Counted from the stretch's first letter, positions 14,968 to 61,576 are shown. The stretch is DNA of 64,000 nucleotides from Nannocystis sp. SCPEA4 (GCF_026626685.1 NZ_JAPNJX010000021.1:105329-169328), one strand, 5' to 3'. A program made the numbers and translations. The notes: generated by a model not told the origin, from the sequence alone.

Positions 14968-15260
14968 GTCGAGCGGGCGGCCGAGGGGCGGCGCGGCAGG
15001 TCCCTCGCGACGCGGGTCCTCCCGGACCAGGTGCTCGTCGGCGATGACAGGTGGCGCGCGTCCGCCGATCGGCCCGCCGCCTGCGCGCCAGGTCCAGGTC
15101 CTCCCGCTGCGTCCCACCACGCCGCCCCTCGTCCGCCCTGAGGAGATCGTCGCGGGCCCCGCTCGTCGCCGACGAGTCGTACCGCCGGCCCAGGGCCAGC
15201 TGCATGGATAGACATGTCGTAGAGGACATGATCTCTGGACTATGTTTCAAAGAACATGTC

Positions 15261-16942: not shown

Positions 16943-16950
16943 CCCTTGAG

Positions 16951-17100
16951 ACATGTCTCATCGGCCATGTCACGGAGAGCATGTCGTGGCGGACATTTTC
17001 TCGGAGACATGTCCAGATGCTCATCCCGGATCGGGCATGTCTCGGAGAGCATGTCGGATCAGACATTTCCGTGACGACCTATCCGAATGCGCATTCTTCG
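16951..17100. repeat. Intergenic array of GACATGTC-family short repeats (period about 12-14 bp)
   Basis: GAGACATGTCTCATCGGC / CATGTCACGGAGAG / CATGTCGTGGCG / GACATTTTCTCGGAGACATGTCC ... GGGCATGTCTCGGAGAGCATGTCGGATCAGACATTTCC. Confidence 0.7.
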
Positions 17101-17470
17101 CGCGCACCGCCCGTCGGCCAGCCTCCGGACGCACGCGACCATCTTCTCCCCGCGCACCTACCCCCCTCCGCACATCACCTTTCGCTCGCACGCACGGATC
17201 CCCTCTGTCCTTCCGGACATCACCTCCCCTCGCTCCCGCCATGTCCCTCCAGACATGTCCTTCGCGCCACGCGCAGCGCCCGCCGCGGCCTGTTACGGCC
17301 GAGCCCGCCCGCCGCAGTCCGCGCGGTCGGCACGGACGCCGGCGCGGACTTGCGTATGCGCGCGCGACGGCCCGCGCGACCGCGCGTGAGGCAGCTGCGT
17401 GCTATCCCGAGCGCGCGAGGGAATGGGCAGCCGGCCCAAGCCGTTGTCGCGATTTCCTCGTCCCGTCGTC

Positions 17471-25440: not shown

Positions 25441-25625
25441 ATGTCCATTCGGACATGAATCTATTCACATGTCCATTTAGACATGTCTTGTCAATTTCGA
25501 CGAGTCCATTCCTACGGACATTGTCTATGACTCCATGAACATATGTCCATTCAGGCACATTTCTGCGCCCCTCGACGGGCCGGGCCGCGCTGCGAAAGCC
25601 TGTCCGTAACGACATGTCCTACGAA
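25441..25625. repeat. AT-rich island made of tandem GACATGTCC-family repeats, upstream of the ParA-TPR gene
   Basis: CATGTCCATTCGGACATGAATCTATTCACATGTCCATTTAGACATGTCTTG...GACGAGTCCATTCCTACGGACATTGTCTATGAC...ATATGTCCATTCAGG...CGACATGTCCTACG. Local GC is far below the window average. Confidence 0.7.
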
Positions 25626-39283: not shown

Positions 39284-40744
39284 TCACGCCGGCGTGAACA
39301 CGAACGGATACGTCACCGCCGTCGAGCCTGCCCCCTCGGCCCGCGGGAACTTCCACCGCCGCACCGCCTGGGCGACGCAGGCCGACAGCGCCTGATCGCG
39401 GACATCGCTGTCGATCGCCGCGGCACTGGTCACCTGGCCCCCGCCGCCGATCACGAACTGCACGCTCACCCTGCCCTTCGCCTCCGGATCGCGGGCCAGT
39501 GTCTGATTGTAGCAGTGGCGGACCTCGGCCAGGTGCGCGCGGACGATCCGGCGAATGATGTCGCGGTCGAGGGCGCCCTGGGCCTCGCCGCTGCCCGGTC
39601 GCACTGTCGGCACCCGTGTGCCACGGCCGCCGAACGCCACGCCCGACCGCGACTGCCACGAGTTCGCCTCGACCCCACACCCGCAGCCCTTGCCGATCAG
39701 GCCGACCACGTCGAGGCCGGCCCCCTCGCCCGACAGCGGTCCGCCGCGCCCGGTGCCGACCAGTCCGAGGCCGCCGAGGCCGATCTCGCCGACCTGCGAG
39801 CCGCCTGCTCCGCCCCACACGTCGGCGTCGCCGTCGGCCCCGGCGTACGCCTCGCCCGCCCCGACGAACCCGCTCGCCTGCATCAGCCCGAGCACCCCGG
39901 CGCTGCGGGCCGCCTGCGCCGGATCGTGCCCGCGGCCCAGCGCCGGCACCGTGCTCGCCGGACCACGCGCCAGCCCGCCGAGCCGCGGCTGACGCACCGC
40001 CCGACCCGCCGACACACCTGTCTCTCCGGACATCCCGCCTACATCCGTGTCGTCGCCCGGGCTCGCCGCCTGCTCGCGCGCCGGCAGGGTCGCGCGCACC
40101 ACCCGACCGACGTAACGCTCGTCGTCCGGCCCCAGATCGACCTGTCGTATCGACAATGCCTCTTGAGACATGTGCAAAAGTACAGCCTCGAAACCGATCA
40201 ACCCGAGCCCCGCGGTCGCGATCGAGCGCAGCGGCAGATCGAGGCCGCCGCGCGCGATCGTCGTCGTCTCCGGCTGGACCGCGCGGATCTCCAGCGTCAC
40301 GGGTCCATGCGTCAGCGTGCAGCCGCTCGTGGGCACCCGCCGACAGCCGGCGGTGGTGAACATCCACGGACCGGTCGCGCCGGCGACGAAGCGCGGCGTC
40401 GCGGCGCGCGGCAGGCCGGGCAGCCGCTGCGACGGGCGTTCGCGCAGGCGCGACAGTCCGACCACCAGCGGCACCAGACCGAGCAGCGCCAGCGCCCCGC
40501 CGAGGCCCCCGGTGCCGAGCCCGGGCGCGGGCGGTCGCACCTCGCCGCGCAGCTGCGCGGCCGCCACCGCGGCGGCGTAACCGGACCAGTCCTGACGCAC
40601 CTCGCTGGCGAACAGCCCGAGCCCCCCGGCAAACACCAGCGCGCCGAGGCCCAGCGCCAGCGCACCGCGGCGACGCGGCGCAGGCCGCAGGTGGACCACG
40701 TCCAGCGTCGTGCGGCCGTACGTGGTGACGACTTCGATCCACAT
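39284..40744 (-). CDS. AgmX/PglI C-terminal-domain protein (TonB-C-like; myxobacterial gliding-associated family)
   Basis: N-terminal TM helix, Gly-rich middle, C-terminus LDRDIIRRIVRAHLAEVRHCYN...GRVSVQFVIGGGGQV...CVAQAVRRWKFP matches the AgmX/PglI C-terminal domain. Confidence 0.6.
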   Translation of the reverse strand: MWIEVVTTYGRTTLDVVHLRPAPRRRGALALGLGALVFAGGLGLFASEVRQDWSGYAAAVAAAQLRGEVRPPAPGLGTGGLGGALALLGLVPLVVGLSRLRERPSQRLPGLPRAATPRFVAGATGPWMFTTAGCRRVPTSGCTLTHGPVTLEIRAVQPETTTIARGGLDLPLRSIATAGLGLIGFEAVLLHMSQEALSIRQVDLGPDDERYVGRVVRATLPAREQAASPGDDTDVGGMSGETGVSAGRAVRQPRLGGLARGPASTVPALGRGHDPAQAARSAGVLGLMQASGFVGAGEAYAGADGDADVWGGAGGSQVGEIGLGGLGLVGTGRGGPLSGEGAGLDVVGLIGKGCGCGVEANSWQSRSGVAFGGRGTRVPTVRPGSGEAQGALDRDIIRRIVRAHLAEVRHCYNQTLARDPEAKGRVSVQFVIGGGGQVTSAAAIDSDVRDQALSACVAQAVRRWKFPRAEGAGSTAVTYPFVFTPA

Positions 40745-40820
40745 CGCCGGGCTCTACGCGCCGGTCGGGCCGCCTGTTCCCGCCCGGCCGTATTCTCAGA
40801 TGTCCATCCGGACATGTCCT

Positions 40821-52466: not shown

Positions 52467-53348
52467 TTACCCGACCTCGCGGCGCGCGGTGAGGCCCTCG
52501 CAGAAGCGCTCGACCGCCGCGCCGATCGCTGCGTGGTGCTCGAACAGGCTGGTGTGCGTCCCGTCCTCCAGCCGAAGCAGGCGGCTGCCCGGGATCGCGC
52601 GGTGCAGCGGCAGGCCGACCCGGGGCGCCGGCGCGAACACGTCGCGGTCGCCGGCCACGATCAGCGTCGGCGCCGCGATCGTCGGCAGCAGGTCGGCGGC
52701 GTCGTGGCTCTGGGCCGCCAGCGCCATCGCCGCGAGCGTGCCCGGATCGAGCTCGCGCACGAAGTGCTCGATGTACAGCTTCACGTCGGCCGGCGTGGCC
52801 GCGGGTCCGATGAGCCCCAGCAACTGTCCCAGGCGACGACTCCCCGGCAGCCCGACCAAGCCGCGGGCCCCGCGGAACGCCAGGCGGAACCCGGACACCG
52901 GCAAGCGAGCGATGAGCCCGTGCAGGATCGGCCCGACCGGCCCGAGCGCCGTGTCGAACACGCGGCCGGCGGGGCCGAGCAGCAGCACCAGCCCGCGCAC
53001 CCGCGACGGCGCCGCGCGATAGACCTCGAGCGCGACCTGGCAGCCCATCGAGAAGCCGACCACCGCCGCGTCGGTCAGGCCCTCGGCGTGGAGGATCTGC
53101 AGCGCGTCGCCGGCCAGCGCCGGGATCTCGACGCCCTCGCGCGTGCGCGCCGGCTCGCTGCGGCCGTGCCCCTTGAGGTCCCACGTGATCACCGTGAAGC
53201 GCCGGGCCCAGCGCGGCGCCAGGTGGGTCCAGAAGAACCGCGACGTCGTGATGCCGTTGCACAGCAACAGCGCCGGCCCCTCGCCCTCGCGGCGGTAGAA
53301 CACGCGGGTGCCGTCGGCGGCGACGATCGTGCGTTCGCGGGCGGACAT
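52467..53348 (-). CDS. Alpha/beta-fold hydrolase
   Basis: GFSMGC nucleophile elbow, HGxxRS-type oxyanion region (LKGHGRSE). 293 aa. Confidence 0.75.
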   Translation of the reverse strand: MSARERTIVAADGTRVFYRREGEGPALLLCNGITTSRFFWTHLAPRWARRFTVITWDLKGHGRSEPARTREGVEIPALAGDALQILHAEGLTDAAVVGFSMGCQVALEVYRAAPSRVRGLVLLLGPAGRVFDTALGPVGPILHGLIARLPVSGFRLAFRGARGLVGLPGSRRLGQLLGLIGPAATPADVKLYIEHFVRELDPGTLAAMALAAQSHDAADLLPTIAAPTLIVAGDRDVFAPAPRVGLPLHRAIPGSRLLRLEDGTHTSLFEHHAAIGAAVERFCEGLTARREVG

Positions 53349-53482
53349 GGGCACCGCCGAGGATGCCACGATCGCGCGAAAAGGGAACCCGCCGGCCGCG
53401 ACAGAGGGGGAAGGCCGGGCCGGCGGGTCGAGTGGATGTCTTTTCGGTCATGTGCGAACAAACACACGACCACGCGCCGCGA

Positions 53483-54532
53483 TCACCAGCGGATCGTCAC
53501 CAGTCCGTCGCCCGCGCGCACCCCGGGCAGCCCGCTGCTGTCGGGCTCGTCGCCGAGGTACGACGAGCCGCCGCCCCCGCCCGCCGCATAGGCCGAGCCG
53601 CCGCCGAACCAGCCGCCGCCCCCGCCTGCCACGTGGTACAGGCCGACCCCGCCGCCGCTGCCGAACAGGCCCGGCTCGCCCGGCTCGGAGCCCACGGTTC
53701 CGCCGTCGCTCTGCGTGCCGCCGCCTGCCGCCTGCCACTCGGGCAACAGCGCCACGCCGGCGCCGCCGATGAACACACCGCCCGGACCGCCCTCGCCGTG
53801 ATCGGGGCAGCCGCACTGTCCGCCGCCGCCGCCCGCCGCCACCACGATCCGATCCTCGAGCTCCGTCCCGCCGCGGCGCACGTCGCTGGCTCCGCCGCCG
53901 CCGCCCGCGAACTCGCCCCCGACGCCGCCGCCGTTGTAACCAGCCGCGCCCTCGAGCCCGCCGCGTCCGCCGACCACGATCTGCAGCGCCTCACCCGGCT
54001 CGACCTCGAGCTCGGTGCGCACGTAAGCACCGCGGCCGCCGTCGTCCTGCTCCGGTCCATCGCAGCAGCGCGAGCCGCCGCCCTGGGCGCCCCACGCCTC
54101 GATGGTGATCCGCGACACGCAGTCGGGCACCACGAACGTCTGCAGCGCGCCGGTGAACGCGAACTCGCGGGCGCGGCCGTCGGGCGTCACGCGCGTGCGC
54201 TCGACACACTGACCGTCGCAGCGGATCTGGCCGCGCTCGCACGGCGCCTCGCAGTAACCCGCCGCGCACGTGCCGGCGCAGACGCGGCCGCAGCCGCCGC
54301 AGTGGCGCGCGTCGAGCGTGATGTCGACGCACTCCAAACCGCACAGGTCGAGCGCGGCCGCCTCGCACGCGCGCACCAACGCCTTGTCTGCATCGGCGGC
54401 GTCGTCCGCCTCGGCGACCGCGAGCGCGCCCGGCACCGGTCGCGGGGGCTGCGTGTCCGAGACCTCGTCGCAGCCGCCGGCGGTGATCATCAACACCACC
54501 GACAACGTGCACCACCGGTCCTTGCGTCCCAT
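53483..54532 (-). CDS. Glycine-rich lipoprotein (Gly_rich-domain family), paralog 1
   Basis: Lipobox LMITAGGC. Cys-rich module, FAFTGALQTFVVPDCVSRITIEAWGAQGGGS block, then a long poly-Gly tail ending TIRW. Confidence 0.65.
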   Translation of the reverse strand: MGRKDRWCTLSVVLMITAGGCDEVSDTQPPRPVPGALAVAEADDAADADKALVRACEAAALDLCGLECVDITLDARHCGGCGRVCAGTCAAGYCEAPCERGQIRCDGQCVERTRVTPDGRAREFAFTGALQTFVVPDCVSRITIEAWGAQGGGSRCCDGPEQDDGGRGAYVRTELEVEPGEALQIVVGGRGGLEGAAGYNGGGVGGEFAGGGGGASDVRRGGTELEDRIVVAAGGGGGQCGCPDHGEGGPGGVFIGGAGVALLPEWQAAGGGTQSDGGTVGSEPGEPGLFGSGGGVGLYHVAGGGGGWFGGGSAYAAGGGGGSSYLGDEPDSSGLPGVRAGDGLVTIRW

Positions 54533-54839
54533 CTGCCTGGTTCCCCCTGCGACCTGTAGGGATGATGCGCAGCAGGCAGGCACGCAAACCCCGTTGTGTC
54601 CCGCATCACCAGCGCCGCGCCGCTCTCCATGAAGATGTCCCTTCACACATGTCCGAAAGACATCCTCGCAAGCCGACACACCTCGCCGCCGCACGACGTT
54701 CACCACCGCTTCGGCCCGCCGCCACGCGCCGCACGTCGTCGCGGTCCACCACGCAGCTGCACCTCGCCGGTTCACGGCACCGACCTCGAGTCCAACCTTC
54801 GCCTCGCGCCTCGCAGCCATGCGCTCCCATCTCGGCGCA

Positions 54840-55180
54840 CTCCCCGGTGGACCTGGATGACGCCGCGCTCACTGGCAGATCTGCACCACCCCGACGACGT
54901 CCCCATCTCCATCCGCGCCTCGCTGCCGTCCGCTCGGATCTCGGCACACGCACCTGTGCACCTGGATCACGCCGCTCTCACTGGCAGATCTGCACCACCT
55001 CGACGACGTCACGTCGCGCTCACTGGCAGATCTGCACCGCCCCGACGACGTCGCCTGTCTCCATCCGCGTCTCGCGGCCGCGCCTCGCTCGGCGCTCATC
55101 CGCGGCTCCGCACCCACACCATCCGCGCGCCTCGCTCTCGAGCTCCGCCTCGCCATCGTCCGCTCGCGGTTCGGCGCGCT
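54840..55180. repeat. Complex direct repeats in the spacer between the glycine-rich paralogs
   Basis: GCGCTCACTGGCAGATCTGCACC(A/G)CC(C/T)CGACGACGTC x3 (about 54865, 54971, 55015), plus repeated GGA(C)CTGGAT(G/C)ACGCCGC and CCATCTCCATCCGCG blocks. Confidence 0.7.
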
Positions 55181-56028
55181 CACCAGCTGATCACCACCAC
55201 ACCATGGCCGTCGCGCGCCCCGATCTCGAGCTCCGCCTCGCTGCCGGCCGGGCCCACGTACGACGAACCGCCGCCTCCGCCCGCGCCGAAGGCCCCGCCA
55301 CCGCCGTACCAGCCGCCGCCGCCTCCGGCCACGTGATAGCCGGCCGCTCCGCCGCCGAGCCCGAACACGCCGGCCTGACCTGGCGCCGCTCCGCCCGTGC
55401 CACCCGCGTGCGGCTGTCCACCGCCGCCTGCGCGCCAGTTCACGTCGCCGACCACCCCGTCCTCCCCGACCAGCCCGCCGCCGTGTCCGCCCGCTCCGTG
55501 ATCCGGATAGCCGCACACGCCGCCGCCGCCGCCGCCGACCACCAGCGCGCGATCGACCAGGCTCGCGCCGTTCAGGCGCACGTCCGACGCTCCGCCGCCG
55601 CCACCGCCCCACCTCCCGCCGCTGCCGCCGCCGTTCCAGCCGGGCGCGCCGTCGAGGCCTCCGCGGCCGCCGACGTGCACCAGCACCACGTCGCCGGGGC
55701 TGACCGAAAGGTCAGCTCGCAATCGGCCTCCGTGTCCGCCGTCCTCCTGCACGTCGGGCAGGCCGTGCTCTTCGTCGATGCCGCAGCGGCTCGGCCCGCC
55801 CTGCGCGCCCCACAGCTCGACGGTCAGCGTCGTCACGCACTCCGGCACCACGAACGCCTGCGGCGTGCCCGTGAAGCTGAACCACCGCGCGCCTGGCTCC
55901 ACACACTCCGAAGTTCGCTCCGGGGCCATCCCGTCGATGCCCTCGTACTCGGCCGCGTGGCAGCCGAGCAGCACCGCCAGCGCCGCCGCGGCGCGATCGT
56001 GTCGGATGTGAGAGCCCGCCCGCTGCAT
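55180..56028 (-). CDS. Glycine-rich lipoprotein (Gly_rich-domain family), paralog 2
   Basis: Lipobox AVLLGCHA. WFSFTGTPQAFVVPECVTTLTVELWGAQGGPS block and poly-Gly tail ending VVISW. Clearly paralogous to 53483..54532. Confidence 0.65.
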   Translation of the reverse strand: MQRAGSHIRHDRAAAALAVLLGCHAAEYEGIDGMAPERTSECVEPGARWFSFTGTPQAFVVPECVTTLTVELWGAQGGPSRCGIDEEHGLPDVQEDGGHGGRLRADLSVSPGDVVLVHVGGRGGLDGAPGWNGGGSGGRWGGGGGGASDVRLNGASLVDRALVVGGGGGGVCGYPDHGAGGHGGGLVGEDGVVGDVNWRAGGGGQPHAGGTGGAAPGQAGVFGLGGGAAGYHVAGGGGGWYGGGGAFGAGGGGGSSYVGPAGSEAELEIGARDGHGVVVISW

Positions 56029-56199
56029 CGTACCCCCTCCTCCAGGGATGCGCGGCGTCGTCCGCGGTGCAACCTCCCCCGTGCTGCCCGTCACGTCGGT
56101 CGGTCGCTGGCGACAAACCCTCCAGCGCCGAAGCGCGCCCGCACGCGGGGCGGCGCGACGCCCGGCTTTCACCCTGCCCCTTGGAACATTCCCTCGAGC

Positions 56200-56566
56200 A
56201 CATGCCCATGAAGACATGCCTATTACAACATGTCCATTGAGACATTCTACTTGACCTCGGCCCCGGCCACCTGCGCCCCCGCCTCCCCCTGTCTCCCGCG
56301 GCGCGGCGGCCGAACGCCACGCCACGACCTGTCCCTTGCGACATTCCACCTCGCCCAGCTCCGCCCCCTGCCAGGCCCGCGCCCCACCGACATCTCGCCA
56401 CGCCACGACGACATGTCCCTTTCGACATGTTTCCTCGCGCATGACTCACCGGCCCGATGCCGGCCCGCGCCTACCCCCAACAGGTCGCCGCGCCCTTCAA
56501 ACGCCCCGACGACCTGTCCTTTTCAACATGCCCCATCGAGCATGACTCACCGGCCCGACGCCGGCC
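56200..56566. repeat. GACATG 14-bp-period array plus a 56-nt direct repeat x2 upstream of glycine-rich paralog 2
   Basis: ACATGCCCATGAA / GACATGCCTATTAC / AACATGTCCATTGA / GACATTCTACTTGA. Also GAC(A/C)TGTCC(C)TTT(C/T)(G/A)ACATG...GCATGACTCACCGGCCCGA(T/C)GCCGGCC at about 56411 and 56511. Confidence 0.7.
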
Positions 56567-56569
56567 GCC

Positions 56570-59452
56570 TCACCCGATCTCGCCGCGGCGCGCCCGGCCG
56601 AACGCCACGCGGCGCAGCAGCAGGTCGAGGATCAACAGCGGCAGCGCCAGCGCCCACAGCACCTCGGGCCAGACCGGGCGCTGGCGCGTCCCTTGCGGCG
56701 CGCCGGGGCTCGTCACCACCGCGTCGATCGGCCCCGCGTGCGTGCCTTCGGGCGCCAGCGCCGCCAGCCAGGCCGGGTCGGCGCCGAGCTGGTCGGGCGC
56801 CAGCTCGGCCGGGTACGGCACGCTCGCCTGGCCGGTCGCCTCGGCCACCAGTCGCGGCGGCGTCTGGCCGTCGTCGAACATCTGCGCCTTGATCAGCCGC
56901 TGGCCCGCGCGCACCCCGATCACCGTCGCCTCGTAGCGGCCCGGCGCCGTCAGCTGCGTCGTCAGCTTGGTCGTATGTCCTTCGGAACCGGGAGGAAGGG
57001 ACGGGTCGATCACCTGCAGTTCGCCGCGCAGGTCGCTGACGAAGCCGGTGCTGGCGTCGAGGTCGACCACCGCGCGGAAGCTGCCCTCGTCGGCGCCGGG
57101 CGTGATCCGCAGCGACGCCCCGCCGAGCGACGCGGCGCCCTGGCGCATCACGTCGCGGGCCACCTGCGACCAGAACTTGGGGAAGCCCTCCCAGGCGATC
57201 CAGCGGTGGGCCCAGCGCGGCTTGGCGTCGGACGCGAACGCGACCGTGCGGCCGAGCCCGCGGCGGCCGCGGACCAGCAGCGGATCGCCGACGTGCGTGC
57301 GCAGCAGCAATTCCGCCAGCGGCTTGGTCTTCAGCGGGATCACCCCGCCGAGCCCCGGCGCGCGGTCGAAGTCGATCCCGCGCAGCACCTGGGCGCTCTT
57401 GGCCACCCGCGCGAACAGGTCGCGCTCGACCACCGCGTTGCGGGTCACCTCGCGCGTCTCGCGGGAGAAGATCCGCGGCACATCGGTGCCGTCCTGGCTG
57501 AAGTAGTAGCGGCCGCGCCCGCGCTCGGCGACGCGGGCGAGGAAGTCCTTGCCCGCGCCCGCGCCGACGCCGACGGCCGACACCGTAATGTCGGCGTCGC
57601 GCATGTCGGTGATGAGCGCCGACACCCCGGTCTCCGGCGACTGCCCGTCGGACAGCAGGATCACGTGCTTGACCAGCGCCTTGCTGCCCGCGAGCTGCAT
57701 GTACGCCTCGCGCAGGGCCGGCAGCGCATTCGTCCCGCCGCCGGCGCTGAGCCGGCGGATGTCGCCGGCGATCCGGATGCGGTTGGCGGCCGGCTGCAGG
57801 CGCACCAGCGTGACCGGCCGCGAGTCGAACGCGATCACCCCGATCTCGTCGCCCGGGTCGAGCGTCGAGGCCGTCGAGCGAGCTGCCTCTTTGACCAGGT
57901 CGAGGCGATCCTCGCTCGACATCGACCCGCTCTTGTCGATCACCAGCACCAGCGCCAGCGTCGGCTGCTCGCGCTGGCGCTCGCCCTCGAAGCGGACCGG
58001 CAGCACGTCCTCGATCACGCTGCCGCCCCAGCCGCCGACCCCGAACGCGCTCTCGCCCCCGATCATCACGAAGCCGCCGCCGTCCTGGACCCACTTCGCG
58101 ATCGCCTGCTGCTGCGCCCCCGACACGTGGCGCGACGGCACGTCCGACAAAATCACGAGGTCGTACGGCTGAAGCCCCTCGGCCGCGCCCGGGATCGCCG
58201 ACGCCGCCTCCGCGTCGACCTGCAGGTGGTCGGCCCGCAGCGCCCGCGCCAGCGCGCCCGACGGATCGCCCTCGCCGACCAGGAGCACGCGCGGTCGTCC
58301 GCGGACCTCGCCGACGGCCGCCGCGCGGTCGTTGTCGAGGCTGCGGTTGTCGGCCGCCGCCAGCTCGGCCGCGTCGAGTCGGGCCGCGATCACGATCGGC
58401 CCCGGCGCGTTGGCGCGGACCGGCACCTTGATCTGCTGCGGCCCGCCGCGCAGCGCCACCTCGACGCTCGGCGACAGCGCGTTCGGCTGCCCGTCCTTGT
58501 CGACGAACAGCTTGAGCGTGCGCGGCTCGGAGGCCCACACGTCGATCGCCGCGTCGAACGTCTGCCCGACCCGCAGCTCGCCCGGCAGGTGCACCCCCGC
58601 GACCAGCACGTCGCCGCGGGCCGCCGGCGCGGCCGTGCGGGTGTGCAGCGTGATCCCGCGCCGGCGCAGGCCCTCGGCCGCCGCGATCAGGTCGGTGCGC
58701 TCGGCCACGCTGGCGGCACCGTCGCTGACCAGCACCACCCGGCCCTCGGTGTCGGGGTCGAGCAGCGCCTCGGCCAGCCGCAGCGCCCCGGCGTGATCGC
58801 TGGCCAGTCCGCCATCTGGCTCTCGGGACAGCTGCACTTCAGCTGTCCCTTCGGACAGGGGCAGCGCCGCCGCCCGGCTCGCGTAGGTCACGAGGCGCAG
58901 GCGCGTGAGGTCGTCGCGGTCGCCGGTCTCGGCGCGGACCAGGCGCACGACCTCGCGCGCGACCCCCGTGAACGCGGCCAGCTGACCGTCGTCGACGCTG
59001 GCCGACACGTCGACGGCCACCACCACCGTCTTGCCGCGCCGCGGCGCCTGCAGGCTCGGGGCGGCCAGCGCCAGCGCCAGCGCCAGCAGCAGCAGCACGC
59101 GCGCGCCGAGCTGCAGCGCCACCTGCCAGGCCGGCAGGTCGACCAGCGAGCGGCGCGCGACCGCGACGAGGAACGGCAGCAGCGCCACCGGCATGAGCCA
59201 CAGCACGCTCGGGCGCGCCAGCACCAGCGTGCGGTCGCCGGCCTCCGACAGCCTGGCCGCCAGCCACTCGGGCAGGGTGAACAAAAGGACAGGAACGTCG
59301 GGACCGAAGCGATGCAGCGCCGCCGCGGCGCCGAGGCCGAGGGCCAGCCACAGCAGAGCCCAGGGGCGAGCTCCGAAGGGTGCAGCGCGGGTCAAGGGCG
59401 CACCGGGGCGCGCGGGCCGGGGGAAGATCGCATCGGCGAGGTCCGCAACCAT
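56570..59452 (-). CDS. VWA-domain protein with N-terminal TM segment (BatA/BatB-like)
   Basis: Met MVADLADAIFP, two N-terminal TM helices, two VWA-like MIDAS regions (VVVAVDVSASV; LVLVIDKSGSMSSEDRL). 961 aa. Confidence 0.7.
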   Translation of the reverse strand: MVADLADAIFPRPARPGAPLTRAAPFGARPWALLWLALGLGAAAALHRFGPDVPVLLFTLPEWLAARLSEAGDRTLVLARPSVLWLMPVALLPFLVAVARRSLVDLPAWQVALQLGARVLLLLALALALAAPSLQAPRRGKTVVVAVDVSASVDDGQLAAFTGVAREVVRLVRAETGDRDDLTRLRLVTYASRAAALPLSEGTAEVQLSREPDGGLASDHAGALRLAEALLDPDTEGRVVLVSDGAASVAERTDLIAAAEGLRRRGITLHTRTAAPAARGDVLVAGVHLPGELRVGQTFDAAIDVWASEPRTLKLFVDKDGQPNALSPSVEVALRGGPQQIKVPVRANAPGPIVIAARLDAAELAAADNRSLDNDRAAAVGEVRGRPRVLLVGEGDPSGALARALRADHLQVDAEAASAIPGAAEGLQPYDLVILSDVPSRHVSGAQQQAIAKWVQDGGGFVMIGGESAFGVGGWGGSVIEDVLPVRFEGERQREQPTLALVLVIDKSGSMSSEDRLDLVKEAARSTASTLDPGDEIGVIAFDSRPVTLVRLQPAANRIRIAGDIRRLSAGGGTNALPALREAYMQLAGSKALVKHVILLSDGQSPETGVSALITDMRDADITVSAVGVGAGAGKDFLARVAERGRGRYYFSQDGTDVPRIFSRETREVTRNAVVERDLFARVAKSAQVLRGIDFDRAPGLGGVIPLKTKPLAELLLRTHVGDPLLVRGRRGLGRTVAFASDAKPRWAHRWIAWEGFPKFWSQVARDVMRQGAASLGGASLRITPGADEGSFRAVVDLDASTGFVSDLRGELQVIDPSLPPGSEGHTTKLTTQLTAPGRYEATVIGVRAGQRLIKAQMFDDGQTPPRLVAEATGQASVPYPAELAPDQLGADPAWLAALAPEGTHAGPIDAVVTSPGAPQGTRQRPVWPEVLWALALPLLILDLLLRRVAFGRARRGEIG

Positions 59453-60443: not shown

Positions 60444-61360
60444 TCGCCACGCCCGGCCCCGCTCACGCCGCCGCGATCGACCTCGTGTTCGCCAGCCCGC
60501 GGCGCCTGCCCAAGCCGGCGAACCTGCGCGGCCGCGTGGTCGTGCTCGACGTCGCCTTCGCGGCCGAGGGCATCGGCAGCGGCTTCGAAAAGATCACCGG
60601 CAAGTTCCTCACCGGCCTCGGCGCTCGCCTGGCCCGGTGGGTCGACCACCACGATCACGAGCGCCACGCCCAGTTCCGCGGCGATCGGCGGTTCGTCCTC
60701 CACACCAAGGCCGAGCACGGCGCCTGCCCCGAGATCATCACGCCCGAGATGGTCCAAGAGACAGGTCCGGTCGACACCATCGTCGCCCACTTCGACCTCG
60801 ACGGCCTCTACTCGGCCGCCAAGTGGCTGCTCGGCGGCGTCGAGCCCTACCCCGGCGCCGACGCCGACGCCCGCGCCGTCGACACCCGGATCGGCGAGCC
60901 CGGCCCGATCGGCGCGCTCGTCGACCGGGCCCTGCGCGCCCACTACGAGGACACCGTCCTCCTGATCAAGATCGTCCGCTGGCTGGTCGCCGGCATGCCG
61001 CGCGGCCCCGAGCAGGAGGCGATCGCCGCCGCCGCGGCCGACTTCGACGCCATGGCGGCCGAGGCCGCGGCGCTGGCCCGCGCCTACGTCGTCGAGGACG
61101 ACGTCGCCCTCGTGCGCGTCCCCGCCAACCAGCGCCCGTTCGACAAGACCGAGCTGCTGCTGCTCGGCCAGGAGCGCGCCCGCGTGGCCGTGGTCGTCGA
61201 CGGCCAGACCGTCAACATCGCCGCCGGCTTCGACAGCGGCCTCGATTTCGTGGCCCTGCTCGGCCTCGGCGGCGGGATGCCGACCCGCGTCAGCGTCCCG
61301 GCCTCGCGCCTCGCCGACACCCTCGACAAGATCCACGGCGCCCTGCGCGAGCGCGGTTGA
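60440..61360 (+). CDS. Hypothetical protein
   Basis: 306-aa ORF with TTG start overlapping the upstream stop. The true start is uncertain. Confidence 0.4.
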   Translation: MIATPGPAHAAAIDLVFASPRRLPKPANLRGRVVVLDVAFAAEGIGSGFEKITGKFLTGLGARLARWVDHHDHERHAQFRGDRRFVLHTKAEHGACPEIITPEMVQETGPVDTIVAHFDLDGLYSAAKWLLGGVEPYPGADADARAVDTRIGEPGPIGALVDRALRAHYEDTVLLIKIVRWLVAGMPRGPEQEAIAAAAADFDAMAAEAAALARAYVVEDDVALVRVPANQRPFDKTELLLLGQERARVAVVVDGQTVNIAAGFDSGLDFVALLGLGGGMPTRVSVPASRLADTLDKIHGALRERG

Positions 61361-61576
61361 CCTGTCCTTCGGGACACTGTCTCTACGGACATATCCCGAG
61401 AGACATCTCTGTCTCCAGGCCGACCGCCCCGCGCCGACGGGCGCACACGCGCCGCGGGCACGCGATCGCGCGCGATCGATAGCTCACTGGGTGTTGCAGG
61501 TCGGACAGGCAAATAGGACTCTACCGGCCGCAGTCCGAGTGCCCACCCCCCGGGCCGGACCCAGGAGAACCGCAAC

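Follow-up and report, generated by a model that had tools for sequence, protein, structure and literature searches.

A tandem pair of predicted ALK/LTK-type glycine-rich lipoproteins in Nannocystis and the repeat-dense spacers beside them

Two glycine-rich genes and their domain family

We analysed a 64,000-nucleotide stretch of the genome of Nannocystis sp. SCPEA4 (GCF_026626685.1, NZ_JAPNJX010000021.1:105329-169328; hereafter the window, with a G+C content of ~73%), in which two adjacent minus-strand genes, here named A and B, encode glycine-rich proteins and are separated and preceded by spacers dense in repeats. Gene A (53483-54532) is an open reading frame (ORF) of 349 aa from the ATG at 54532, and gene B (55180-56028) is an ORF of 282 aa from the ATG at 56028. 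The two products are identical, starts included, to MCY1062615.1 (A) and MCY1062616.1 (B) of this strain, both annotated by NCBI as "glycine-rich protein". The order on the minus strand is VWA, B, A, alpha/beta hydrolase and PAF-acetylhydrolase-like lipoprotein: a 941-aa VWA-domain protein (56570-59395, minus), syntenic in all relatives, is the upstream neighbour of B, the alpha/beta hydrolase (53369-52467, minus) lies downstream of A, and the PAF-acetylhydrolase-like lipoprotein (52457-51159, minus) lies downstream of the hydrolase. The VWA-B spacer (56029-56569, minus) is 541 nt long and consists of tandem units of ~100 nt followed by a conserved promoter-like core; the B-A spacer (54533-55179, minus) is 647 nt long, with tandem units in its distal part and a conserved promoter-like block in its proximal part.

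A and B are 55% identical across 252 residues (E 2e-27) and are probably both lipoproteins. The signal peptide up to the lipobox Cys reads MGRKDRWCTLSVVLMITAGG before the C in A and MQRAGSHIRHDRAAAALAVLLG before the C in B, the lipoboxes being ITAGG before Cys21 in A and VLLG before Cys23 in B, as judged against the PROSITE PS51257 pattern; the lipobox is retained in the orthologs (...GGC and ...LGC). The original prediction, made from the sequence of this locus, had described tandem lipoprotein paralogs with a common N-terminal block and a terminal Trp, and all of this was recovered: the block is FAFTGALQTFVVPDCVSRITIEAWGAQGG in A and FSFTGTPQAFVVPECVTTLTVELWGAQGG in B, and Trp is the final residue of both (...IRW* in A, ...ISW* in B). 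Between the signal peptide with its lipobox and the glycine-rich domain, which runs to the C-terminal Trp, A carries a Cys-rich module (~residues 46-111) with a weak match to Stig1 and a match to NF041328 (MXAN_6577-like Cys-rich) at E 4.8e-10, below that family's cut-off. B has the glycine-rich domain only. Beyond A and B, a tblastn search for further paralogs in the 64-kb window gave composition-driven noise only.

A resemblance to the Gly_rich family had also been proposed, and the hidden Markov model search bears it out. Both proteins score far over the threshold of Pfam PF12810, now named ALK_LTK_GRD and formerly Gly_rich (A 88 bits, E 1.3e-24; B 74.6 bits; cut-off 24.5), and cover positions 12-203 (A) and 11-201 (B) of the 243 in the profile. 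A profile built from 56 homologs matches the ectodomain of ALK along the whole domain (E 0.005), and B is 31% identical to human ALK over 180 aligned residues. The conserved glycine runs and the GGGGAS-D-R motif are present; 37 columns are invariant in the 56 homologs, among them G144-G146, D149, R151 and G166-G169. The AlphaFold2 model of B, made from the same alignment, has a mean predicted local distance difference test score (pLDDT) of 89.7 and contains a TNF-like beta-sandwich together with a glycine-rich (polyglycine-II) subdomain; when it was compared with the PDB using Foldseek, the top 20 matches were all ALK/LTK glycine-rich domains (GRDs). By sequence and predicted fold, A and B are members of the ALK_LTK_GRD family, and the body of each is predicted to be a single ALK/LTK-type 'TG' domain, in which a TNF-like beta-sandwich carries a lattice of polyglycine-II helices. 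The "long poly-Gly tails" previously ascribed to the two proteins are not tails: the glycine runs are spread within one folded domain, and in the model the C-terminus is a beta-strand (strands 262-272 and 277-281). One of these stretches in B is encoded by a perfect (CGC)6.7 run (55518-55537); there is no sign that the run varies, since it is in frame and the length of B is constant in seven genomes.

The likeness to the ALK/LTK GRD (PDB 7LS0, 7LRZ, 7NX1 and 7LIR) consists of the TNF-like sandwich and the polyglycine-II lattice. Unlike those receptors, A and B have no transmembrane helix and no kinase, EGF-like, MAM or LDLa domain, and carry a lipobox anchor instead. An identity as receptor tyrosine kinases was considered and rejected because the transmembrane helix, the kinase domain and the EGF module are all missing and both sequences stop with the final strand of the GRD, and the UniRef label 'receptor protein-tyrosine kinase' on the Nannocystis orthologs (P0001, P0003, P0122, P0124 and P0127) is an over-transfer of annotation from ALK. 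A and B are thus new members of a known, annotated domain family, which comprises 5176 representatives at 50% identity and includes many giants of 1,000-7,800 aa, in which the GRD occurs up to nine times (P0135-P0270). As minimal, single-domain bacterial versions of the unusual ligand-binding fold of ALK/LTK, they could serve as simple models of how a polyglycine-II lattice folds and binds. The abundance of the family in bacteria and its occurrence in phages also bear on the origin of the metazoan domain.

The role to which we commit, as the most likely and with moderate confidence, is that of a lipid-anchored binding module of the cell envelope, adhesin or receptor-like. The analogy runs through the solved relatives, namely ALK/LTK and phage fibre or tip domains, which are ligand- or host-recognition modules, and is strengthened by relatives on viral contigs, by varied surface anchors and by the size of a family with multi-domain giants; giants with up to nine copies of a domain are a pattern typical of adhesins. 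The homologs carry several different surface-anchoring tails (lipoboxes, C-terminal hydrophobic stretches that end in arginine runs, ...RRR, and the type IX secretion system tail PF18962), which makes it probable that the glycine-rich domain of A and B is displayed on the surface. GRD relatives are encoded on 48 viral contigs, and on one of them (L133) a GRD protein of 1079 aa, which also has a minor-tail-protein match, lies between a tail/baseplate protein and an endolysin. Polyglycine-II bundles resembling the predicted lattice occur in the tail fibres and tips of phages, such as the fibre of cyanophage Pam3 (7YPX), gp33 or 'tail wing brush' of mycobacteriophage Bxb1 (9D93), and the tail protein gp38 of Salmonella phage S16; these and the ALK domains with polyglycine-II bundles are described in PMC13243192. 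However, the proteins of the phages belong to large virion assemblies, whereas A and B are small stand-alone chromosomal lipoproteins that lie in conserved synteny with no phage genes nearby. The ALKAL ligands of ALK/LTK are metazoan, so the ligand of the Nannocystis proteins must be a different one.

Polyglycine-II bundles are also known in antifreeze proteins (PMC13243192), which raises the alternative that the GRD proteins bind no ligand and instead form a structural part of the envelope, or a bundle active on ice or surfaces and comparable to the snow-flea antifreeze protein. Homologs have no conserved ligand or partner gene beside them, as this alternative would have it, but the ligand-binding ALK/LTK and phage fibre domains are by far the closest structures, and the retention of the TNF-like sandwich implies more than a bare bundle. 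We regard the alternative as rather improbable and retain the binding module. No functional study of a bacterial family member was found in the literature searched, and searches for bacterial ALK-like domains or PF12810 returned nothing relevant except PMC13243192. On one of the viral contigs (L136 1347-6779, IMG/VR, 88 kb), two adjacent phage ORFs of 891 and 816 aa each hold two to three GRD-like domain copies; they match phrog_1589, phrog_5811 and phrog_7388, annotated as being of unknown function.

Duplication history and the origin of the spacer repeats

The order VWA-B-A-hydrolase seen in the window recurs in seven other Nannocystis loci, from two N. pusilla assemblies (GCA_020073745 and CP185339), N. 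punicea, N. radixulma, N. exedens, ILAH1 and RBIL2. A more distant metagenome-assembled genome (MAG) of the Nannocystaceae has the same flanks, with the VWA gene, one GRD gene and the hydrolase, and its single GRD gene has the architecture of A, a Cys-rich module plus GRD. The seven loci with the pair and the MAG with a single A-like gene indicate that the pair arose by tandem duplication within the Nannocystis lineage. B is the copy without the Cys-rich module, and the pair, as far as the compared loci tell, is stable and lineage-specific. Ratios of nonsynonymous to synonymous substitution (dN/dS) of 0.17-0.40 against six other genomes indicate purifying selection on both A and B, and mature B is 260 aa long with zero gaps in an alignment of seven genomes. 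Orthologs are 73-97% identical, far closer than the paralogs (55%), and A and B have no more than 14 consecutive nucleotides in common, a length on which RecA-dependent recombination would work poorly. Neither the ortholog and paralog identities nor the longest shared run gives any sign of gene conversion or concerted evolution between the two genes.

The repeats of the B-A spacer had been described as a 37-nt unit present three times, plus other direct repeats, in ~650 bp. We recovered them as overlapping 109-nt and 42-nt tandem repeats (54805-55055) that contain the 37-nt unit three times. Tandem Repeats Finder (TRF) gives 1.9 copies of the 109-nt repeat (86% matches, score 321) and two copies of the 42-nt repeat; the unit itself can be drawn as 45 nt, present three times at 91-100% identity (54860-54904, 54969-55013 and 55011-55055), and its core GCAGATCTGCCAGTGAG occurs three times in the spacer against 0.20 expected. 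When the final 80 nt of gene B together with 8 nt more were aligned against the gene's own downstream spacer, a first decayed copy, covering the gene's final ~65 nt with the stop codon, was found at 55092-55153 (minus, score 61) and a further decayed copy of the 3' end at 54861-54932 (minus, score 46), in the register of the TGAGCGC anchors; the null from shuffles has a mean of 22.3 (standard deviation 3.0, maximum 32). The GCAGATCTGCCAGTGAGCGCG core in the latter copy corresponds to ...GTGATCAGCTGGTGAGCGCG (VISW*). Likewise, the 37-nt unit ...GGTGCAGATCTGCCAGTGAGCGCG corresponds, in decayed form, to ...GGTGGTGATCAGCTGGTGAGCGCG, a sequence that covers the codons for VVISW, the stop codon and a few bases beyond. 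The first of the downstream copies is almost intact in N. pusilla GCA_020073745 (score 111), where it spells GDGVVVISW* in a shifted frame. These relics of gene B are limited to the clade of SCPEA4, N. pusilla GCA_020073745 and N. radixulma. Within this trio the distal spacer differs by insertions and deletions of whole units and the ~170 nt before gene A are almost invariant; across the genus, the distance from the stop codon of B to the lipobox Cys of A ranges from 279 to 894 nt.

The spacer upstream of B has the same character. The direct repeat and motif arrays previously noted there are present as a 66-nt direct repeat (85%; 56400-56465 and 56501-56566), which lies within a 101-nt tandem repeat of 2.1 copies, and as an array with a 14-nt period. 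The 101-nt repeat (56400-56609; TRF score 230, alignment score 73) spans the stop codon of the VWA gene, and its unit contains the VWA 3' end, a hairpin CCGGC-N5-GCCGG, TGAGTCATGC and a pair of CATGTC motifs. The last ~40 nt of the VWA gene with the stop codon and these downstream elements occur again at 56409-56508 and, incompletely, at 56263-56322 (minus), where the alignment identifies a third copy of the VWA 3' end (score 59; z 8.9). Four genomes, N. pusilla, N. punicea and N. radixulma among them, have tandem repeats of 95-118 nt upstream of B, while N. exedens has no long tandem repeat at the locus. In front of gene B, ILAH1 and N. pusilla CP185339 have the 14-nt array alone.

Taken together, the spacer repeats are decaying, non-coding relics that arose when the 3' end of the preceding gene was copied in tandem. 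The copied segments, of ~60-100 nt and spanning the stop codon, were left by local duplication, and variation in the number of relic copies was seen between species only. In a test of 40 window genes for repetition of their own 3' end downstream, gene B (z 13.2) and the VWA gene (z 8.9) stand out and the rest remain below 8. That 3'-end duplication is a general feature was therefore rejected, only these two genes exceeding z 8, and the locus is locally prone to duplication. A third, weaker 3'-end repeat belongs to the gene at 30695-33304 (minus) and lies ~77-123 nt past its stop codon (score 38, null 21 +/- 2.7, z 6.2).

Promoter-proximal blocks and a genus-wide phased palindrome

Next to the start of each gene, the spacer contains a strongly conserved block. 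The promoter-proximal core of gene A (54533-54610, minus) is near-invariant in seven genomes, whose distal spacers cannot be aligned. It consists, in order, of GGTGA-N6-ACACA, TTTGCGTG, GCATCAT and CCTACAGGTCGCAGGGG, with AGGGG after GCATCAT. That of gene B (56029-56096, minus) is an invariant block in seven genomes and reads CGTGACGNGCAGCACGG..TTGC..CGCGGACGNCGCCGCGCATC..GGAG; set out like the core of A, it has CGTGA-N6-GCACG, then TTGCAC, GCGCATC and GGAGG. The two cores resemble each other, and each has a palindrome (54596-54610 for A, 56081-56096 for B) ~20 nt upstream of the conserved TTGC element. From these sequences we infer that each core may be a promoter in its own right that was passed on by the duplication and contains a CRP-family-like palindrome. 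On inspection by eye, sigma-54 promoters at TGGCAG...TGCA and GGCAGCAC...TTGCA were rejected, as the spacing is wrong.

Further from the gene starts, short motifs recur at a fixed phase. Three phased GGAYRTSY units, GGATGTCTTTCGGACATGTGTGAAGGGACATC, lie upstream of gene A (54634-54665, minus). Upstream of gene B, an array of five CATGT units with a 14-nt phase lies at 56181-56248 (minus; TRF reports 3.3 copies of the 14-nt repeat at 56200-56245), and additional CATGT pairs lie at 56508-56534, 56406-56434 and 56323-56347. From 330 kb of Nannocystis DNA, the consensus unit is a 10-bp palindrome, GGACATGTCC, plus 4 unconserved nt. About 13 such units precede gene B at the GRD locus, and a conserved pair precedes gene A: the pair GGACATGT-N6-GGACAT is kept in all seven Nannocystis genomes amid diverging surroundings, which argues for function at least at this site.

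The palindrome is not confined to the GRD locus but fills the DNA between genes all over the window and in Nannocystis genomes generally. With one mismatch allowed, the window contains 73 copies of GGACATGTC, where 11 would be expected, and the 8-mer core has 63 window sites against 11.7 +/- 3.2 in composition-matched block shuffles. Distances between sites are almost only 14, 28, 42 and 56 nt, and 22 of 24 in-phase sites fall in non-coding sequence, which makes up ~24% of the window. Examples lie at 860, 1717-1842, 4884, 15211-15253, 16950-17062, 17238-17252, 25466-25611, 40139-40811, 45136, 61359-61402 and 63505 of the window, and others at loci L001-L082 and L123-L128. In a scan for three phased CATGTC cores that took one genome per species from 185,579 species, Nannocystis accounts for ~38 of the 80 listed loci and the rest are scattered singletons. 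The enrichment reaches close MAGs of the Nannocystaceae and was not found in Paraliomyxa, an Ottowia-like contig, Streptomyces or Azospirillum.

Base pairing between neighbouring palindromic units can give stems of 7-10 bp, and a long, spurious ORF crosses the region, which together could suggest that the spacers encode structured RNA, small RNA or small peptides. We consider this most improbable. A scan of 52500-57500 against Rfam gave no match at E <= 1; the folding energy of the B-A spacer is the same as that of shuffled sequences (z = -0.07), on which ground structured RNA in this spacer was rejected; and the spacers cannot be aligned outside close relatives. Where adjacent units deviate at mirrored positions, the deviating bases are still complementary in 9.8% of cases against a null of 7.3% +/- 0.8, and a conserved hairpin was rejected since covariation at this level is too weak. 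With little compensatory change and no excess folding energy, a double-stranded DNA site for a symmetric dimer is likelier than a hairpin. The GGACATGTCC arrays at the GRD locus are local instances of a genus-wide intergenic element, whose units would most plausibly be binding sites of a dimeric DNA-binding protein.

The arrays share several features with REP elements (repetitive extragenic palindromic sequences) and BIMEs (bacterial interspersed mosaic elements), being short, palindromic, of high copy number, nearly exclusively intergenic, clustered and specific to a lineage. They differ in structure: the GGACATGTCC unit is a perfect 10-bp palindrome in direct tandem copies with a strict 14-nt phase, whereas REP elements are imperfect hairpins of 20-40 nt in alternating orientation, and the GTAG/CGTC tag of REP elements is not found in the unit (PMC3733652). 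Moreover, unlike in REP/BIME, hairpin covariation is weak and single sites are conserved at orthologous promoters. In the literature searched, we found no description of GGACATGTCC arrays, of Nannocystis intergenic repeats or of GACATGTC. The phased arrays are the most unusual thing observed here and are more novel than the proteins. One tentative possibility, which we put forward as somewhat speculative, is that they constitute an undescribed system of Nannocystis cis-elements, with about a thousand or more intergenic arrays per 12-13 Mb genome and a dedicated, abundant dimeric binder (a nucleoid-associated protein or global regulator), for which the GRD locus would be one of the denser targets. 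Units of ~100 nt that bear arrays would, on this view, multiply locally by tandem duplication and carry gene 3' ends with them. Nannocystis is known for very large genomes and natural products, and if the arrays are protein-binding sites they would amount to a large regulatory or chromosome-organising system.

A related possibility is that the duplicated units are themselves selected regulatory DNA: every further unit would add a hairpin and a GGACATGTCC pair, and the number of units would tune transcription of B (and A) through the array-binding protein. Each unit upstream of B does have a hairpin and a motif pair, duplications with different sequences recur in N. punicea, and the genus as a whole retains the motif pair that precedes A. 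Yet the relic units of the B-A spacer carry no GGACATGTCC motif, both genes are kept in N. exedens, ILAH1 and N. pusilla CP185339, which have no long repeats upstream of B, and the unit sequences decay at about the neutral rate next to a conserved proximal block. We consider selected units unlikely, if less so than an RNA or peptide product, and continue to read the repeats as decaying copies of gene ends.

Stability of the locus and the question of switching

The reading that joins these observations, and that we hold to be probable on balance, is that A and B are a stable tandem duplicate of a lipid-anchored binding module and that the spacers between and before them combine duplication debris with a genus-wide motif, and are not a switch. 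The original prediction had taken the architecture to favour recombination, copy-number change or phase variation of a surface protein, and for this we found no support: the arrays are genus-wide, the units are decaying 3'-end copies, and the promoter blocks lie outside the repeats. Whether the spacers are invariant across isolates had been named as a check, with a divided outcome, since spacer lengths and unit numbers do vary between species but no indels separate two near-identical isolates. ILAH1 and RBIL2, a single pair of genomes 0.4% apart, differ by 33 single-nucleotide polymorphisms (SNPs) and zero indels in 9002 nt.

A contingency locus, in which recombination or slippage of the repeats would change the copy number of the genes or switch expression of the surface protein (phase or antigenic variation), would account for part of the pattern. 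The number of units differs among the three closest species and the spacer length ranges so widely in the genus, similar tandem repeats of ~95-118 nt lie upstream of B in four genomes, and 7 of the 33 SNPs between ILAH1 (L125) and RBIL2 (L126) cluster within 127 nt (2412-2538) of the spacer that precedes B, which is 261 nt long there. Nevertheless, the units are few (2-3) and diverged (61-93% identical) rather than perfect short tracts, and the conserved promoter-proximal blocks lie outside them. TRF finds only long, diverged units and in-frame runs of Gly-codon triplets, and no simple-sequence tract in the promoters. There is no segment flanked by inverted repeats and no recombinase among the neighbours, the inverted repeats present being weak and not flanking promoters. 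Identity between A and B never extends beyond 14 nt in a row, concerted evolution is not seen, and the length of B does not change in seven genomes. The 9 kb compared between ILAH1 and RBIL2 remained free of indels despite spacer tandem repeats of 40 nt and 20 nt, and the motif arrays occur genome-wide. The contingency loci of Neisseria and Haemophilus are simple-sequence-repeat or cassette systems. The Nannocystis locus shares with contingency loci the presence of surface-protein paralogs with repeats nearby, but has no short perfect tract in a promoter or ORF, no silent cassettes and no invertible segment, and shows no indels between close isolates. A contingency locus is thus very improbable here, and we keep to the stable duplicate with relic spacers.

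Several observations weigh against that reading. The number of spacer units changes among the three closest species, and ILAH1/RBIL2 is the sole near-identical pair, from a lineage without the 3'-end relics and with other tandem repeats. Values of dN/dS of 0.3-0.4 are fairly high and leave room for some diversifying pressure. The binding role is argued by analogy of fold and architecture, and the neighbourhoods of distant homologs (in Paraliomyxa, and around an Ottowia-type homolog on a metagenome contig) share nothing that hints at a ligand; they have nothing in common with the Nannocystis locus, and no partner or ligand can be proposed. As for the spacers, a sigma-70 consensus scan found no promoter, and the palindrome is present in gaps between converging gene ends as well (window 860; L001 14545-14685) and hence cannot be described purely as a promoter element. 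For annotation, the locus illustrates that a repeat-dense spacer beside a surface-protein gene need not be a switch.

Two features lie downstream of the pair. N. punicea and N. radixulma have a radical-SAM/SPASM gene downstream of the locus (L002 15085-16843 and L123 8619-9056), which is missing at the equivalent position in N. pusilla GCA_020073745. In the window, a terminator-like hairpin with a T-rich tail (53466-53486, minus) lies immediately past the stop codon of gene A, one of four terminator-like sites found against 0.5 expected.

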